Positions 10,761 to 27,160 of a stretch of 64,000 nucleotides of DNA are shown piece after piece. Source of the stretch: Candidatus Bathyarchaeota archaeon (GTDB lineage Archaea; Thermoproteota; Bathyarchaeia; 40CM-2-53-6). The stretch covers positions 3,183 through 67,182 of the forward strand of contig VBBR01000032.1 in assembly GCA_005881615.1 (NCBI GenBank), written 5' to 3'. Under the pieces are notes generated by a model. The model did not search any database, was not told the origin of the DNA, and saw only the letters and a program-made list of their open reading frames with translations. The position numbers were made by a program, and so were the translations under genes. How positions within the stretch are numbered: position 1 is the first letter of the stretch; every line of letters begins with the position of its first letter.

Positions 10761-11479
10761 CAACTTCGAGAAACCTAGCATTTGGCTGGGGCCACCAGAA
10801 CGACCTGAGACTTGGGTTTGCCCTTGCTCAGGCGTTCTTAAGTGATCCCTTCGTGGTTACAACATTTCTAACTGTCCGGGCCGCTACTTCTGAGCCCATA
10901 TCATCGGCTGTGAGAACGAAAGAGTTCCTTGAGTTCCATGGCACTGTCAACTCTTCGGTTGCTGTTTCTTGTTCTTCGGTCGTCTCTAACTGTTTTGTTC
11001 GAGGAGTGACCGATTATTCGTTAGGGGCGTTCGTCAGATGAGCCCTGTTACGCTTGGGGGAGGTGACTGGTTGGTTGGCCACTGTAAAATCCCTGCCTTG
11101 CAACGGGCCAAGCTACCACGCTACGGGCGTGAGGGGGCGGTTGAGGTTCGACCGTTCCCTGCCGAAAAGAGGCTCGGTGTCCCTGAGGCGCAAGGGCTCT
11201 CAGGTGAAGCAGTGAAGGGGAACCCGATGACGACGGTAATCCTCGGAGTCGATGAGAACAAGTCTAGTCTTCGAACAACCGAAGACTTGACAGAACCAGT
11301 TCCAGCAAACGCTAAGGGAGCTAGAAAGCCAGGTTCGTAAGCTCCTGAAGGAAGCAGCGGAAAGCGGTCCTTCCGAGAGAACCCGGGATCTTACTGGGAG
11401 AGTCTACGATCTGGCCGAACGAGCCAACCAAATTCGGCCCCAAGAAGCTAGGAACCAGTCTACTACCAACCAGTCAGTC

Positions 11480-11881
11480 TTGGAAAAGCTTCCCGAAGAG
11501 TTCAATGAGGATTTTGGTAGATTCAAGGCATTGGTAACCTTCGTTGAACCGGTCCGAAAGCAGCACTATAACGCCACGGGTCACAATATAGGAAGAACCT
11601 ATGGTTCCTTTGGAACCAGTGAACTCTCGCCAGGACACCACCACGGCAAGTCCGTCATCAGTACCCTAGAAATCCGTTGCGACGCCTGCGGTAACGAATC
11701 CCCCCAGTCAGAAAGAAGAGATTACCCAATTCACGTTCTGCTTCACGACCGAGAACAATGGGAAGTTTGTACCGGTCAATCCGGCTGTGAATGCCAAGGC
11801 TACGAGGGCAAGGGCGTTCGAATTGGCGTCAACCTTTCTCCTGAGAGAGTAGGGAAAAGGGAAAGAGCCCAAGCTCTCTGA
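11480..11881 (+). CDS. hypothetical Cys-rich protein (frame is open from 11291 with no canonical start before the TTG at 11480)
   Basis: C-terminal CDACGN...CTGQSGCECQGY suggests a metal-binding module. The upstream in-frame segment (QNQFQQTLRELESQVRKLLKEAAESG...) looks coiled-coil-like. ORF 11038..11340 in another frame may be part of the same gene disrupted by a frameshift. Confidence 0.3.
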   Translation: MEKLPEEFNEDFGRFKALVTFVEPVRKQHYNATGHNIGRTYGSFGTSELSPGHHHGKSVISTLEIRCDACGNESPQSERRDYPIHVLLHDREQWEVCTGQSGCECQGYEGKGVRIGVNLSPERVGKRERAQAL

Positions 11882-17689: not shown

Positions 17690-18394
17690 GTGTCAAGAAC
17701 CCACTTGGAACGCGTCCCAAGTAAACCAGCTTTCAAGATAGAAATGTCATACAAGTCCATGAAGAATTGGGACCGAGAGCAGAGAGAGCCTTTGCTCTCG
17801 AAGGTCACCGATCGCATCCACCACCAAGAACCGCTCAAGGAGAAGATCTCACAGGTCGTCTACAAGCTCAAAGTACAACAGAATAGGCTTGAAGGAGCCA
17901 ACCTCAAGACACAGCAACACGACAAGTCACTGTTCGACAAGTGCGTCCAAGCCCAGATGTCCAAAGACACCATGCGCAGCGCAATGTACGCCAACGAGAT
18001 CGCGGAGATCCGGAAAATCGCCAAAGTTACACTCAGAAGCGAACTAGCACTCGAACAAGTCGTACTCCGACTCGAAACAATCCAGGAATTCGGCGACGTC
18101 GCAGCCATGATGGGCCCAGTCGCAGGAGTAGTACACCAGATCAAGAACCAGATCGCGGGAGTCATCCCACAAGTCGGCTACGAACTAGGCGAGATCTCCG
18201 ACACACTAAACAGCGTAGTCATGGAAGTTGGCGAAGCAACGGGACAAGGCTATGATCTGGAGGCATCAGGTCCAGAAGCCTCGAAGATCATTTCTGAAGC
18301 CAACACCATAGCTGAGACACGGATGCGTGAGAAGTTCCCGGAGTTACCCTCTCCAACCGCCACTGCAGAACACGAGATAGTGATTCCAAGGTAG
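17690..18394 (+). CDS. ESCRT-III / Snf7-family protein (CdvB paralog)
   Basis: Snf7-like helical core (...ANEIAEIRKIAKVTLRSELALEQVVLRLETIQEFGDVAAMMGPVAGVVHQIKNQIAGVIP...), closely related to the ORFs at 19196 and 22831. No C-terminal winged helix. Confidence 0.75.
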   Translation: MSRTHLERVPSKPAFKIEMSYKSMKNWDREQREPLLSKVTDRIHHQEPLKEKISQVVYKLKVQQNRLEGANLKTQQHDKSLFDKCVQAQMSKDTMRSAMYANEIAEIRKIAKVTLRSELALEQVVLRLETIQEFGDVAAMMGPVAGVVHQIKNQIAGVIPQVGYELGEISDTLNSVVMEVGEATGQGYDLEASGPEASKIISEANTIAETRMREKFPELPSPTATAEHEIVIPR

Positions 18395-18429: not shown

Positions 18430-19143
18430 ATGCCAATAACACTTGAACAAGTCCGACGATTCCTCGGCAGAACCCTCCAAGACCCCTACGGCAGAGCCTT
18501 CGGCAAAGTCGTAGGCATCTCCGCCAACCTCAGAGACGAGGTAACCGGAGTAGGAATAGAGGAAGGCAACGGAGAATTCCTCCAATGCCCCGGCGACAGA
18601 GTCACCATAACAGGTGACACTCTCGTCCTGGCACCGGCCTGGAAGGTGGAAGCAGAGGAGTTCCGGAAAGAATTCGACATCGTAACTAGACGCCTCCGAG
18701 CCCTTGACGAGCTGTTCAGTGTCGGCGACATCCAGAAGGACGTCTACGAGGATCTAAGGAAACAGCACGAGGACGCGATCAACGAGCTGAAAGGCAAGAG
18801 AAAGGAGATAATCGACACTCTGGCTCAACGAACCAGCGTTCTCAACACGCAGTTGCGACAGTTACAGACACACCTCGCAGGCAACAAGATGTTGCATGCG
18901 TCCGGCGAGTTCGACGATATGAATTACAAACAGGCTAGCGACGCTATCGACAGCGGTCTCGTCCGCGCGATGGCCGAGAAGAAGGACGTTGAGTCAATCT
19001 ACAGTTACCTACAGAAGCTCGACGCGGCCCAAGCGCCCCCCGCTGCACAACAGCCCCAACCCATAGCTCCAACCCCTCAACCAACCACAACAACCTCCCC
19101 CGCGAGAGACCCTGTTCTAGTACTTCACGTGAGGGAGACTTAG
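18430..19143 (+). CDS. cdvA: CdvA (PRC-barrel + coiled-coil cell-division protein)
   Basis: N-terminal PRC-barrel-like segment (LGRTLQDPYGRAFGKVVGI...GVGIEEGNGEFL...), a long coiled coil, and a Pro/Gln-rich tail. Located between two cdvB-type genes. Confidence 0.75.
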   Translation: MPITLEQVRRFLGRTLQDPYGRAFGKVVGISANLRDEVTGVGIEEGNGEFLQCPGDRVTITGDTLVLAPAWKVEAEEFRKEFDIVTRRLRALDELFSVGDIQKDVYEDLRKQHEDAINELKGKRKEIIDTLAQRTSVLNTQLRQLQTHLAGNKMLHASGEFDDMNYKQASDAIDSGLVRAMAEKKDVESIYSYLQKLDAAQAPPAAQQPQPIAPTPQPTTTTSPARDPVLVLHVRET

Positions 19144-19195
19144 GAGGATTCAAGGGCTGTTCCGAAAATTCGAGGAGAAAGTCCATCCTATTCCG

Positions 19196-19960
19196 TTGAA
19201 AGAGCGCATAGCGCAAGCTTTGTTCCGACTCGGATCACAGAAAGAAAAACTAGAGCACATGTCCGCTAGGCTCCAGCAACGCGACAAAGAGATGTTTCAG
19301 CGATGCATCGGCGCTCAGCTCTCCAAGGATCCCTCTCACGCAGCTCTCTACGCCAACGAGTGTGCTGAGATTCGGAAAATGGCTCATCTTACGCTCAGCA
19401 GTGAACTGGCCCTCGAACGTGTCATCCTCCGAATGCAGACGGTCGAAGAGTTCGGCGACATTATGGCCCAGATCGCACCGGTCATCGGAGTCGTACGCGA
19501 GACACGCGGTAGAATTGCAGGTGTCATTCCCGAAGTGGCCAACGAGCTTGGCGAGGTCAACAACATGCTAAGTGACATGAGCATGGAAACCGGCCAGGTC
19601 GGCGAAGACCAGGGCTTCGACATGAGCGCCTCAAGCGCCGAAGCACGCAAGGTTCTCGAAGAATCCAGCGCCATTGCATCCCAAGAAATGAAAGAACGAT
19701 TCCCGGAGCTGCCAATGCCTGAGACCCGCCAACCAGTTCGAGAAGCCGCAACACGCGCCCCAGAACAAAGAATCCCCATCGCCATAACCACAAACGGCTC
19801 AGAAGAAGCTCCCCTGGAAGACAGGCTCCTAAGCTACATCAAATCACACAACGGAGAACTCAGCCTCAACAACTGCTCCGCAGAGCTCCTGGTCCCGAGC
19901 GACGACATCAGGCGTTCCCTACAACGGCTCAAGGATGACGGAAAGATAGTCATGGACTAG
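19196..19960 (+). CDS. cdvB: CdvB (ESCRT-III with C-terminal winged-helix-like domain)
   Basis: Snf7 core plus a C-terminal ...LSYIKSHNGELSLNNCSAELLVPSDDIRRSLQRLKDDGKIVMD winged-helix-like module, as in CdvB proteins that bind CdvA. Confidence 0.8.
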   Translation: MKERIAQALFRLGSQKEKLEHMSARLQQRDKEMFQRCIGAQLSKDPSHAALYANECAEIRKMAHLTLSSELALERVILRMQTVEEFGDIMAQIAPVIGVVRETRGRIAGVIPEVANELGEVNNMLSDMSMETGQVGEDQGFDMSASSAEARKVLEESSAIASQEMKERFPELPMPETRQPVREAATRAPEQRIPIAITTNGSEEAPLEDRLLSYIKSHNGELSLNNCSAELLVPSDDIRRSLQRLKDDGKIVMD

Positions 19961-20255
19961 ACGGGAGATAAGTGCTCCCGTCCAAGCCCTTCAGTATCAC
20001 AAGAGGGGACAAGTAATCTCAGCATCCGAAGAACTGGAATCGCTTGCAGTAAAATACGCGAAAGAAGCTATCGAGCTGGAGAGAAAAGGCTCCAAACGGC
20101 TTGCCGCAACAAAATACCAGCGAGCCATCGAAGTCCTCCTCAAACTATGCTCATTATACCCAGCCGCGGTTCAAAACAAGGTCTACACGGAACACGTAGA
20201 AGCATACAAGAAACGAATCCAAGAACTCCAGTCAGACGAACCAATAACTCATTCT

Positions 20256-21161
20256 ATGGATTCGACTGAGACCCGTGAGTCCAAGACCATCAAGCTCGAT
20301 CAGTGGGTCCTGACGGAGAAACCGGACATCAGCTGGAGCGACATCGCCGACCTTGAGAAGCCGAAACGAGCGATCGAAGAATCAATAATCTTCCCCGTTC
20401 GAAGACCGGATCTCTTCCCTCTTGGCTGGCCTCGAGGAATACTCTTCTTCGGACCCCCAGGTTGCGGAAAAACCCTACTCGCTGCCGCCATTGCGAGCGA
20501 GATCAAGGGGATGTTCTTCTGTGCGGACGCCGCTTCCCTAATGTCAAAGTGGCTTGGAGAATCCGAACGAAACGTCTCCCAACTCTTCACAAAAGCAAGG
20601 GAAGTGTCTGAGAACGGGCAACCAGCCATCGTTTTCATCGACGAAATAGACTCGTTAATGGGCGTCCGGGGGGAAGAGGTCGGCGGAGAAGTCCGCGTCC
20701 GAAACCAGTTCCTCAAAGAGATGGATGGCATCCTCGACAAGAACAAGAAATTCCACGTCTACCTCATCGGTGCAACAAACAAGCCGTGGGTCCTGGACGA
20801 GCCGTTCATCCGACGCTTCCAGAAGAGAATCTACGTTCCACTACCAGACGTCAAAGCCCGCATGGACATGTTCCAGATCTATGCCCAGAATCTGAAGTTC
20901 CAGAACAACGTGGACTTCGCTGAGCTAGCGCGAAGGACTGAAGGCTACTCTGGAGGAGATATTCGCGATCTGTTCCAGTCCACCCAGATCAAGGTGGTCC
21001 GCGACTTCTTCCAGCGTGGTGCCGCTAACGATCTCAACGCTATTCCAGACCCGATTACTATGGAGGATTTCGAGACCATCATCGTGGGCCGACGGCCAAG
21101 CGTCTCGCAGAACATCATCAAACGATACTTCGACTGGGACGAATCGTTCAAGGCATCATAG
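20256..21161 (+). CDS. cdvC: CdvC / Vps4-type AAA+ ATPase (ATPase core from the first canonical ATG; MIT domain encoded in-frame upstream, 19959-20255)
   Basis: Walker A LFFGPPGCGKTLLAAAIA, Walker B IVFIDEIDSL, a SRH region and a Vps4 C-terminal helix. Upstream in the same frame with no ATG/GTG/TTG: ...ISASEELESLAVKYAKEAIELERKGSKRLAATKYQRAIEVLLKLCSLYPAAVQNKVYTEHVEAYKKRIQEL, a clear MIT domain. Confidence 0.85.
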   Translation: MDSTETRESKTIKLDQWVLTEKPDISWSDIADLEKPKRAIEESIIFPVRRPDLFPLGWPRGILFFGPPGCGKTLLAAAIASEIKGMFFCADAASLMSKWLGESERNVSQLFTKAREVSENGQPAIVFIDEIDSLMGVRGEEVGGEVRVRNQFLKEMDGILDKNKKFHVYLIGATNKPWVLDEPFIRRFQKRIYVPLPDVKARMDMFQIYAQNLKFQNNVDFAELARRTEGYSGGDIRDLFQSTQIKVVRDFFQRGAANDLNAIPDPITMEDFETIIVGRRPSVSQNIIKRYFDWDESFKAS

Positions 21162-22830: not shown

Positions 22831-23439
22831 ATGTTCCGCGACAATCCCTCATTAACCGACAGAATCCGGGAAGCGATCAAGCCGACACCGATGAAACAGC
22901 GGATCCAGTTCGCTTCCCACAAACTCCGTCTACAAACTACAAGGCTGGAGCGAAGCATTACCCAGATGGAATCACGAGACCAGACACTTCGAGATAAGTG
23001 CACCAAAGCACTGGAGGCGCGAGATACTCAAACCGCGACCGTTTTCGCAAACGAATGCGTCCAAATTCGAAAACTCATCAAGACATCCCTCCGAAGCCAG
23101 ATCTGCCTCGAACAAGCACTACTCCGCCTCGAGACGGTGGAACAGTTCGGCGACCTGGTCCACAGCATGGGCTCAGTCAAAGGACTCCTCGGCGCAGTAA
23201 GAGGCGAGCTAGAAGGCAAACTTCCCGAAATTTCAACAGGTATCGGCGATGTCGAAGACTCGCTAGAGAATCTCACGATGGAAATTGGGGAAGCAGTTGA
23301 CTCGGATGGGATGTCCATCCCGGTCAATGATGAATCCGCTCACATCTTGAAGGAGGCGGATCTTATGGCCGAGCAGAAGATGAAAGAGAAATTCCCTGAA
23401 ATTCCTCAGATAGCGAATCCGGCTCATCGAGTGAGGTAG
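22831..23439 (+). CDS. ESCRT-III / Snf7-family protein (third CdvB paralog, no winged helix)
   Basis: ...TVFANECVQIRKLIKTSLRSQICLEQALLRLETVEQFGDLVHSMGSVKGLLGAVRGELEGKLPEI... is colinear with the ORFs at 17690 and 19196. Confidence 0.75.
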   Translation: MFRDNPSLTDRIREAIKPTPMKQRIQFASHKLRLQTTRLERSITQMESRDQTLRDKCTKALEARDTQTATVFANECVQIRKLIKTSLRSQICLEQALLRLETVEQFGDLVHSMGSVKGLLGAVRGELEGKLPEISTGIGDVEDSLENLTMEIGEAVDSDGMSIPVNDESAHILKEADLMAEQKMKEKFPEIPQIANPAHRVR

Positions 23440-23557
23440 AATCTATCTGCTCTCTCCTGAGCTGGAGACGAAAGCTCTCCTCGGACGAAGTGTCAACGAC
23501 ATCTACGGCAGACTGCTAGGACGGGTAATCGGCATCGAGCGCAACCCCTTCGGAGAG

Positions 23558-24064
23558 ATGGAAGGAGTCCAGATAGAAGCGACAGGCGGAATTATTCTCA
23601 CAGCCAAAGCCAGGCAAATGGCCCTCACCCCGAAAACAATCACGATATCCCCGGAGTGGAAGCTTGAGTCCGAGGACATCATCTCCGAACTGACACTGTT
23701 GAGGAAGAGGATTGGTGCCCTGGAATCGTTGAAAGATTCGAGGGAGATTGACGGAGAAATCTATTCGGAGCTTCTCGAGTCGCAGAAGGCCGGCTACCTG
23801 GACAAGGTGAAACTGGCGAGCGCCCTGGTCGGCTCAATGCGATCTAGACTAGCCGAAATCACTGGACAAATCACGAGCCTGACAAGATATCTTGTCAATG
23901 CGAAGCTTGATCACAAGAGTGGGGAGCTTGACGAGGATTCTCTGAAACTCGCGCAGGGCTCTATCGAGCCGAGTCTTCGGCCTTTGATCGCGGAGAGAAA
24001 CGATCTTTCCCTGTCGATCAAAGTTGTCGAGCAGGTCCTGCCATCAAAGGTCAGCATTAACTAG
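23558..24064 (+). CDS. CdvA-like paralog (PRC-barrel + coiled coil); coding frame actually opens at 23435 with no canonical start before the ATG at 23558
   Basis: The in-frame upstream segment SPELETKALLGRSVNDIYGRLLGRVIGIERNPFGEMEGVQIE aligns with the CdvA N-terminus (MPITLEQVRRFLGRTLQDPYGRAFGKVVGISANLRDEVTGVGIE). The downstream part aligns with the CdvA PRC/coiled-coil region (ISPEWKLESEDI / LAPAWKVEAEEF). Confidence 0.6.
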   Translation: MEGVQIEATGGIILTAKARQMALTPKTITISPEWKLESEDIISELTLLRKRIGALESLKDSREIDGEIYSELLESQKAGYLDKVKLASALVGSMRSRLAEITGQITSLTRYLVNAKLDHKSGELDEDSLKLAQGSIEPSLRPLIAERNDLSLSIKVVEQVLPSKVSIN

Positions 24065-25698: not shown

Positions 25699-27098
25699 GT
25701 TATCCAGTGCGTCTCCTCAGCCGAATCCTCAACCACAAAACCAAGCTTGGCCATCCGATCGCGGATGCGATCAGCTGACTCGTAATCACGCTTGCTCCGC
25801 AGCTCGTTCCGCAGCTCCAGGACGAAGTTCACCAGCTCGGAAGCCCGGTTCTGCGCAACAGTCTCGGTCTCCAACACGCCAAGCACAGAGCCCAAGTCCT
25901 CCAAAGCACCAATTATCGCGTTCCCAGATTCGGCCTTCGGATTTCTTGCCTCCTCCTCTGCCAGCCCGACTATTCTGATGTAGGCAGCGAGCGCTCCCGG
26001 CGTGTTGAAGTCATCGTCCATGGCCTTGAAGAACTCGTCTCGCGCCTCGTCCAACGGTTTCAGAACCGAGTTTATCTCATTCTCGTTCCGAGTTATCTTG
26101 TCTCGAGCCAGCGCGAGCTGATCGTGCGCCCGCCTGAACCTTCTCGCAAGGCTAACCGCTTGCTGCAACGCCTCCTCGGTAAAGTCCAACGGACTCCTGT
26201 AGTGCGTTCCTGCGTAGAACACACGCAAACCCGGAGTGCCAACCTTTCTGACCATGTCCCGTATCGGGATAAAGTTCCCGAGCGATTTGTGCATCTCTTG
26301 TCCCTTGATGCTCATCAATCCGGTGTGAAGCCAATAGCGCGCCAATGGTTTCTTACCAGTCAGACTCTCCGCCTCGGCGATCTCAGCTTCATGATGAGGA
26401 AAGATGAGGTCCGAACCGCCACCATGCACATCATACGTTGGGCCAAAGTACGTTAGAGTAATCGCAGTGTCCTCGATGTGCCAGCCAGGCCGTCCCTTTC
26501 CCCAAGGACTCTCCCAGAATATCTCGCCAGGCTTCTGGCTCTTCCACAAGGCAAAGTCTCCAGGATTCTTCTTCCGCGGATCCGGATCAATCCGGTGAAC
26601 CGTAAGATCCGCAAGTTTTTGGTGGGAGAGTTTTCCGTAGCCTGGAAACTTGGAAATGTCGAAATAGACGTCTCCGTCAACCCTGTAAGCTATTCCCTTC
26701 TTGAGAAGTCCAGTGATCTGATCGAGGATTTCGGGAATATGATCCGAAGCCTTCGCGTACAGATTAACACTGTCCACGTGGAGTTCTTTCATGTCCTTGA
26801 AGAAAGCCCTCGCTAACCGATCGGCCAAAGCGAGCGGCTGTTCTCCTATATCGTGAGCCTTGTTGATGATCTTATCGTCAACATCGGTAATGTTGAGCAG
26901 AAAGAAGAGACTGAAGCCCTTCCTCCGCAAATAGCGGGCGATGATATCGTAAGCGACGTAGGTCTTCCCGTGGCCAATATGGGACACATCCCAGACCGTT
27001 GGGCCACAGACAAACATGTTCACCCGGTTGGCTCGGATAGTCTCGAACTTGTCCAGTTTCCGCGTCAGCGTATTGTAGACTCGAAGCTCAGAAGACAT
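25695..27098 (-). CDS. cysS: cysteinyl-tRNA synthetase
   Basis: Class I motifs: CGPTVWDVSHIGHGKTY (HIGH), KMSKS-like EMHKSLGNF; overall length 467 aa. Confidence 0.9.
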   Translation of the reverse strand: MSSELRVYNTLTRKLDKFETIRANRVNMFVCGPTVWDVSHIGHGKTYVAYDIIARYLRRKGFSLFFLLNITDVDDKIINKAHDIGEQPLALADRLARAFFKDMKELHVDSVNLYAKASDHIPEILDQITGLLKKGIAYRVDGDVYFDISKFPGYGKLSHQKLADLTVHRIDPDPRKKNPGDFALWKSQKPGEIFWESPWGKGRPGWHIEDTAITLTYFGPTYDVHGGGSDLIFPHHEAEIAEAESLTGKKPLARYWLHTGLMSIKGQEMHKSLGNFIPIRDMVRKVGTPGLRVFYAGTHYRSPLDFTEEALQQAVSLARRFRRAHDQLALARDKITRNENEINSVLKPLDEARDEFFKAMDDDFNTPGALAAYIRIVGLAEEEARNPKAESGNAIIGALEDLGSVLGVLETETVAQNRASELVNFVLELRNELRSKRDYESADRIRDRMAKLGFVVEDSAEETHWIT

Positions 27099-27160
27099 CG
27101 GATCTATCAGCGCGGAAACCTCACAGCCATTTCACTCAAGCTAGTCCTCTATAACAGGCT

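Follow-up and report, generated by a model that had tools for sequence, protein, structure and literature searches.

We report that a CdvA-like gene in the Cdv (archaeal ESCRT) locus of an uncultured soil Candidatus Bathyarchaeota archaeon (assembly GCA_005881615.1, contig VBBR01000032.1) is very probably an intact gene of 205 codons, situated in a polycistronic cdv locus and started at a near-cognate CTG codon at positions 23447-23449 of the 64,000 nucleotides (nt) of DNA that were analysed (referred to as the window). The gene order of the locus is ESCRT-III paralog, cdvA, cdvB, cdvC, Lrp regulator, membrane protein, ABC ATPase, ESCRT-III paralog and CdvA-like gene. Two further genes of the same locus, cdvB and cdvC, are predicted to use near-cognate starts as well, CTG and ATC, respectively. 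An earlier note on the window, made from its sequence only, had proposed either programmed +1 frameshifting or re-initiation after the ESCRT-III gene, giving fused or coupled products, or a systematic use of start codons that are non-canonical. Codon census, homologue N-termini and selection support the last proposal, which appears to hold for three genes.

The DNA of relatives comprised approximately 110 loci: exact-match contigs, 23 loci from genome assemblies (all of them soil 'Candidatus Bathyarchaeota/Bathyarchaeia' metagenome-assembled genomes) and 80 metagenome contigs. For the start-codon census only distinct sequences were counted, i.e. 62-63 for the CdvA-like gene, 75 for cdvC and approximately 38 for cdvB. 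Shine-Dalgarno (SD) motifs were scored against the archaeal consensus (PMC7531240), the 3' end of the organism's own 16S rRNA being outside the window.

After a TGA at 23432-34 the CdvA-like frame stays open from 23435 onwards and reads GGT AGA ATC TAT CTG CTC TCT CCT GAG... (GRIYLLSPELETKALLGRSVNDIYGRLLGRVIGIERNPFGE). Its first ATG/GTG/TTG is the ATG at 23558, which leaves 41 codons of open frame without a canonical start; this description, given in the earlier note, we could verify in the sequence. With the in-frame codon usage of the window such a run is expected by chance with P ≈0.09. By itself it is therefore unremarkable, and it is homology, selection and coding potential that make the feature real.

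A protein database search returned 197 relatives, nearly all of which are 205 amino acids (aa) long and begin MLSPELETKALLGR (MLSPELET), i.e. at the position of the CTG. Among the distinct loci the codon homologous to CTG 23447-49 is ATG (24), TTG (22), CTG (10), GTG (3) or ACG (3-4, one sub-clade: L082:8430, L083:3649, L089:4750 and L090:4104), such that a canonical codon is present in 49 of ~62. The third base of this codon is G in 62 of 62 sequences, only NTG and ACG were seen, and a synonymous Leu codon never occupies the position, while Leu codons 2, 6, 12 and 24 of the same gene vary freely between CTC, CTA, CTT, CTG and TTG. Codon 1 thus varies among start-competent triplets only, which marks it as a start codon and not as a leucine codon. 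The earlier note had allowed for orthologues that begin at the internal Met encoded at 23558 (Met38); instead, they start at the position of CTG 23447, and in several (P0028, P0029, P0085) Met38 is replaced by Leu, so these cannot start there.

An SD motif, (G/A)AGGT(A/G), the core of which can pair with the 3' end of archaeal 16S rRNA, is retained over the upstream stop codon in nearly all loci; in L033, where the spacer between the two genes is 37 nt, a separate AAGGAGG is present instead. Ribosomes that end translation of the ESCRT-III gene at TAG 23437-39 might alternatively re-initiate at the CTG 7 nt downstream, which would give the same start and the same product and would tie expression to the ESCRT-III gene. 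Nearly all loci have a spacer of 3-9 nt, and termination-coupled initiation in Haloferax volcanii works up to ~10 nt and is lost by ~20 nt (PMC10666635); at the cdvA-cdvB junction the spacer is 13 nt. The scheme is, however, inapplicable to cdvC (55-nt spacer with a hairpin) and to L033 with its own SD, and yet both start at the homologous position; moreover, with a well-spaced SD in place coupling is not required. Re-initiation without fusion, in place of de novo initiation led by the SD, is in our view less likely than not; by sequence the two look alike.

In the CTG/ACG lineages, purifying selection acts on codons 2-37. The ratio of non-synonymous to synonymous substitution rates (dN/dS, Nei-Gojobori) for these codons is 0.09 among 13 genes starting with CTG or ACG, compared with 0.07 for the rest of the gene and 0.07 for genes with canonical starts, and within such lineages synonymous outnumber non-synonymous differences by 8:3 (window vs L009), 6:2 (L082 vs L083) and 2:0 (L027 vs L029). 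The coding score of the N-terminal stretch is 0.33 per codon, to be compared with 0.24 ± 0.15 where windows are in frame and -0.56 where they are out of frame. In a neighbour-joining tree CTG appears in at least 4-5 separate lineages and ACG marks another clade; L026, L031 and L099 form a deep clade with CTG in every member and with saturation at synonymous sites. These data bear on the suggestion that the start has been lost by a change from TTG to CTG, the gene now being decaying or translated only from ATG 23558 as a truncated 168-aa protein. It is true that one transition, from T to C, would turn the TTG seen in sister strains into CTG and that all public annotations of these contigs call the CdvA-like gene from ATG 23558. 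Nevertheless, in the CTG/ACG lineages purifying selection is as strong on codons 2-37 as on the remainder of the gene, CTG persists in the deep clade and the third-base G is invariant; in addition, the scan found no SD before ATG 23558, Met38 is not conserved, and according to the structural model a product starting at Met38 would be without two strands of the barrel. Start loss is therefore very unlikely.

In relatives there is no reading frame upstream of the start. Six near-identical contigs (L001-L006; different samples and assemblers) keep the CTG and have TAG in place of the window's TAT at 23444-46, and their CdvA-like frame opens at the CTG itself. An in-frame TAG immediately 5' of the CTG is also present in L034, L036 and L057, which are among the nearest relatives, and in L027/L029, while an in-frame stop is located 0-4 codons upstream of the start in nearly all CdvA-like loci. 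This contradicts the proposal that a programmed +1 frameshift, or a bypass of the stop codon, at AGG-TAG-A fuses ESCRT-III to the CdvA-like protein. The geometry on which that proposal was built is present in the window, where, in the +1 register, the CdvA-like frame runs through the TAG without a stop (ESCRT-III ends AGG TAG, and AGA 23438-40 is in frame), and AGG TAG is kept in many loci, but as a frame relation it is not conserved: of the distinct loci, 43 have an offset of 1, 10 an offset of 2 and 11 an offset of 0, CTG starts occur with offsets 1 and 0, the upstream stop varies (TAG/TAA/TGA), and the distance from stop to start is 6-12 nt. The 3-4 codons from the junction to the CTG are also unconstrained (TAT/TAG/TCG/TTG, with changes in length), and most orthologues have their own ATG/TTG/GTG at the start codon together with the conserved SD. 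The conserved AGGT is explained by the SD, and the 'NNN-TAG-A' arrangement arises because the SD (GAGGT) is placed over the upstream stop codon. Programmed +1 frameshifting of the prfB/RF2 type shares with the junction in the window an SD-like element beside a stop; it differs in that there is here no conserved frame relation, orthologues have their own downstream start and relatives carry in-frame stops. We consider a frameshift exceedingly improbable. An error of sequencing or assembly as the source of the CTG, for which nothing speaks beyond the oddness of the codon, can be dismissed as practically negligible, in line with the earlier note, since the same sequence including the CTG is found in independent assemblies of different samples made with different assemblers and held at NCBI (WNGD/WNFX), ENA (k141 contigs) and JGI (Ga01373xx), and CTG also occurs in the diverged lineages L009, L026, L027, L029, L031, L097 and L099.

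The similarity to the N-terminus of CdvA that the earlier note had pointed out was borne out: BLASTP of the extended product against the canonical CdvA (18430-19143) gave E = 4e-28 for the whole proteins, with an alignment beginning ETKALLGRSVNDIYGR / QVRRFLGRTLQDPYGR. The Pfam CdvA family (PF18822) was matched with 36.1 bits (cutoff 30). In the AlphaFold (AF2) model of the 205-aa product, which includes NPFGEMEGVQIEATGGIILTAK spanning Met38, the predicted local distance difference test score (pLDDT) is 89, and residues 1-37 are modelled as a helix and two barrel strands (15-18 and 23-32). The best Foldseek match of the model was the crystal structure of Sulfolobus islandicus CdvA (9s9g; template modelling score 0.78-0.82 over ~190 columns), followed by PRC-barrel proteins, and an hmmsearch of the Protein Data Bank (PDB) gave CdvA at 1e-22 (query 8-197 to chain 9-196). 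The cutoff of the NCBIfam equivalog NF041007 was missed (69 bits, cutoff 350). As judged from these comparisons, the CdvA-like protein is a homologue or paralog and not an equivalog of the Sulfolobales CdvA. It resembles the latter (PDB 9s9g; PMC12818579) in that an N-terminal PRC-barrel leads into a long helical hairpin, at ~27% identity. The differences are that it is a second paralog beside the canonical CdvA and that it ends at residue 205, after the helical hairpin, without the Pro-rich linker and the ...PVLVLHVRET (VLVLHV) end of the canonical protein. The C-terminal tail of CdvA binds CdvB, and the CdvA-like protein may not bind the winged-helix CdvB in the way CdvA does.

The features of the locus are listed in Table 1. 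A tRNA scan of the window found no tRNA.

Table 1. Features of the cdv locus in the window, with re-annotated starts
Feature	Position	Strand	Basis or remark
ESCRT-III paralog	17690-18394		First gene of the Cdv locus in the window
cdvA (canonical)	18430-19143		Stop TAG 19141-43
SD of cdvB, AGGAGG	19142-47	+	9 nt before CTG; overlaps cdvA stop TAG 19141-43
cdvB, re-annotated (ESCRT-III with C-terminal winged-helix-like end)	19157..19960	+	Predicted start CTG 19157-59
Hairpin GACGGGAG-ataagtg-CUCCCGUC	19960..19982	+	7-nt loop; begins at last base of cdvB stop codon
SD of cdvC, GAGGGG	20003-20008	+	7-nt spacer to ATC
cdvC (Vps4-like), re-annotated, 381 aa with MIT domain	20016..21161	+	Predicted start ATC 20016-18; codon homology, periodicity, NCBIfam CdvC
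Lrp regulator, membrane protein, ABC ATPase	between cdvC (end 21161) and second ESCRT-III paralog
Second ESCRT-III paralog (Snf7-family)	22831-23439	+	Pfam Snf7 1.1e-09; ends CGA GTG AGG TAG
SD of CdvA-like gene, GAGGT	23433..23437	+	SD scan; spacing 9 nt to CTG; overlaps upstream stop codon
TAG stop of upstream ESCRT-III gene	23437..23439	+	Sequence reading; Pfam Snf7 1.1e-09
CTG, probable near-cognate start of CdvA-like gene	23447..23449	+	Census of homologous codon; database homologues
CdvA-like gene, re-annotated, 205 aa + stop	23447..24064	+	PRC-barrel N-domain + CdvA coiled coil
Codons 2-37, omitted by gene callers	23450..23557	+	Helix 4-11, strands 15-18 and 23-32 of the barrel
Internal ATG (Met38)	23558..23560	+	Start in public annotation (168-aa product), judged not to be the real start

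In addition, comparison with relatives predicts that cdvB has a near-cognate start, the third in the locus, which the earlier note had overlooked. The homologous codon is CTG in ~30, GTG in 5, TTG in 2 and ATG in 1 of the distinct sequences, and never CTA or CTC. The product from the CTG, (M)FRKFEEKVHPIPLKER, is parallel to MFRDNPSL... of the ESCRT-III paralog, and the NCBIfam CdvB model aligns residues 12-267 to its positions 19-259/260. The TTG at 19196, from which the listing of open reading frames (ORFs) starts cdvB, was rejected: it is an internal Leu codon that is CTG, CTA or CTC in relatives, and it has coding sequence upstream.

For cdvC, the codon preceding SASEELESLAV is ATC in 64, ATT in 3, ATA in 2, GTG in 2 and GTT or GTA in 4 of the 75 distinct sequences; AUG was found in none of the 75, and the four GTT/GTA sequences have CTG or ATG just upstream instead. 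The assignment of the start is based not on this census but on stop codons, SD spacing, periodicity and profile alignment. A TAG directly precedes the ATC in L099 (behind AGGAGGTG), a TAA directly precedes the GTG in L008, L033 reads TGA-CCA-GTG, and in many loci in-frame stops are located 0-7 codons upstream. GGAGG or GAGGGG is present 7-9 nt upstream of the start codon across the sequences. Among 35 sequences of the window clade, the variable sites 3' of the ATC fall on third, first and second codon positions in the proportion 38:4:3, while the 56 nt upstream of it show no periodicity (8:5:8) and have frame-changing insertions and deletions beside the cdvB stop; the 22 codons upstream score -0.14 per codon (non-coding) compared with 0.21 for the MIT region. 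The predicted product begins (M)SASEELESLAVK, and its residues 2-380 align to positions 2-370 of the NCBIfam CdvC profile; the MIT domain is encoded upstream of ATG 20256. The earlier note had seen the same TAG-A context at the cdvB-cdvC junction. This context is irrelevant to cdvC, the start of which is placed at ATC 20016, 56 nt past the TAG and behind an SD of its own.

The hairpin that follows cdvB is stable and has no T-run behind it in the window. Hairpins with different stem sequences, e.g. GGACGAG/CUCGUCC and AGCGAGG/CCUCGCU, are predicted at the same place after cdvB in 11 of 16 lineages (single-sequence folds), and the differing stems suggest covariation; RNAalifold on a MAFFT alignment of this hairpin, an alignment that is not structure-aware, gave no consensus. 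Located between cdvB and cdvC, the element could act as a partial terminator or as a stability element. When 19950-20030 is folded to minimum free energy (with a z-score of just -2.2), GCCCUU at 19987-92 is paired to the SD region of cdvC, and this pairing may sequester the ribosome-binding site of cdvC.

Near-cognate codons are rare elsewhere in the locus. For ten other genes, ~340 distinct start contexts gave ATG, GTG or TTG with four exceptions, two of which are clean: lrp with CTG in L026, and ESCRT-III with ACG in L082, a 1.24-Mb contig where the gene upstream of the CdvA-like gene starts ACG TTC AGA GAC in place of the ATG TTC AGA GAC found elsewhere. The other two, lrp in L008 and the ABC gene in L086, were dropped because each has an ATG three codons before it. 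When all ~70 ORFs of the window were scanned for coding potential and SDs, no further clear near-cognate start emerged, and when seven other ORFs with long open upstream stretches were searched against Pfam, no domain reached upstream of the first canonical start. Most genes in the window have no recognisable SD before their first canonical start, and clear SDs cluster at genes internal to operons; the three near-cognate genes are themselves internal cistrons, and their SDs rank among the strongest of the window. Judging from these comparisons, near-cognate starts appear to be tolerated at a low rate in the lineage; only cdvB and cdvC have them as a rule, and the CdvA-like gene has them frequently. 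With such codons all but absent from the starts of the ten neighbouring genes, their use looks gene-specific.

Two other loci of the window deserve mention. At 27098-27125 (minus strand) the CysRS gene has a CTG, 27110, in the place of the TTG of relatives, with GAGGT 7 nt before it; four codons downstream of it the window has ATG (27098) where relatives have ATA, ACT or TCT. This ambiguous case could be a shift of the start codon or a fourth near-cognate start. The ORF at 11291-11881 was rejected as a fourth case, since it is frameshifted relative to homologues of 201-206 aa and has AAG at the position of Met. For the hypothetical protein encoded at 11260-11881 (homologues MSSALRTKEFLEFQQTL...), ~7 nt inserted near 11285-11300 divide the coding sequence between two frames; this is a probable pseudogene or local sequence error.

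Several points weigh against near-cognate initiation in the cdv genes. The window, but not its relatives, has an in-frame ATC at 23441, two codons upstream of the CTG, which is another possible start. For cdvC, variation between ATC, ATT and ATA equals that expected of an internal Ile codon, and in part of a clade with 83% identity (L083-L091, L096-L113) the ATC is preceded, at a distance of 5 codons, by an in-frame ATG or TTG; this codon sits inside the GGAGG motif (cATGGAGG / cTTGGAGG) and makes the start ambiguous in those loci, while the window has AAG there. Archaeal reviews give only AUG, GUG and UUG as start codons (PMC7531240), and aIF1 discriminates against non-AUG codons (PMC6237735), so the efficiency at CTG may be low. 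On the other hand, measurements in E. coli rank CUG, AUC, AUU and AUA as the four strongest non-canonical start codons, with 0.1-3% of the AUG level (bioRxiv 10.1101/063800), and near-cognate sites were seen, though set aside, in ribosome profiling of H. volcanii (PMC7261190). Our literature search found no report of non-canonical start codons in cdv genes.

With these points considered, initiation at CTG 23447-49 remains the reading we favour. The SD located 9 nt before the CTG would direct initiation at this codon, and the initiator Met-tRNA would pair with two of its three bases, giving a product that starts with Met and has the whole PRC-barrel, with a yield probably below that of AUG; ribosomes terminating 7 nt upstream may contribute by re-initiating there. 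The same device would be used by cdvB, at CTG 19157 behind AGGAGG, and by cdvC, at ATC 20016 behind GAGGGG. Near-cognate starts (CUG, AUC/AUU/AUA) are allowed by NCBI genetic code table 11.

All public annotations of these contigs truncate three division proteins: the CdvA-like protein is annotated as 168 aa, with half its barrel gone, CdvB is short of 13 N-terminal residues and CdvC is annotated as 301 aa without its MIT domain. The MIT domain is the domain that binds ESCRT-III, and given the truncated CdvC annotation surveys of domain architecture would wrongly infer an MIT-less Vps4 in these archaea. The data also provide comparative evidence that archaea use CUG, AUH (AUC, AUU, AUA) and ACG starts on SD-led internal cistrons, codons that are unlisted in current reviews. 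The CUG of cdvB and the AUC/AUU/AUA of cdvC have been retained throughout a whole clade of soil Bathyarchaeia despite saturation at synonymous sites. A tentative interpretation, which we put forward as a conjecture, is that the weak starts are a selected, gene-specific control that together with the cdvB-cdvC hairpin sets the stoichiometry of ESCRT-III and Vps4, or that makes this machinery respond to the stringency of start selection (aIF1 activity). The absence of AUG at cdvC, its near absence at cdvB and the conserved hairpin between them are consistent with such a control, and suggest start-codon strength as one way in which expression ratios of the archaeal ESCRT proteins might be set.

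Among known systems, near-cognate initiation in E. coli (Hecht et al., bioRxiv 10.1101/063800) resembles the present case in that CUG and AUH codons, with ACG in addition here, are located behind an SD at 7-9 nt. By analogy, the same decoding by the initiator tRNA with reduced efficiency would be expected. The differences are that initiation here would involve the archaeal factors aIF1, aIF1A and aIF2 and that the codons persist across great evolutionary distances in particular genes and are not rare accidents. The bacterial infC gene (IF3) has a conserved weak AUU start that is thought to restrain its expression or to make it regulatable; if selected, the weak starts of the cdv genes would be an archaeal counterpart of this logic in cell division. 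In Enterococcus faecalis the true start of ebpA is an ATT, while an ATG 120 bp downstream had been annotated (PMC4447247), which is the same annotation artefact as for the cdv genes, and the weak start codon is likewise thought to limit or regulate expression. Different from infC and ebpA, the genes studied here encode cell-division proteins and not initiation factors or pilins, and they are without evidence of autoregulation or of a codon-sensing factor. In archaea, single ATC/ATT starts have been inferred earlier for L12ae of S. marinus (PMC2678158) and the tubulin AtubA of an Asgard archaeon (PMC13394414), which share with the cdv genes a conserved N-terminus upstream of any ATG/GTG/TTG, an Ile start codon and a plausible ribosome-binding site; those are isolated genes in single genomes, whereas the near-cognate starts described here concern three genes of one locus, with 40-75 distinct sequences per gene.

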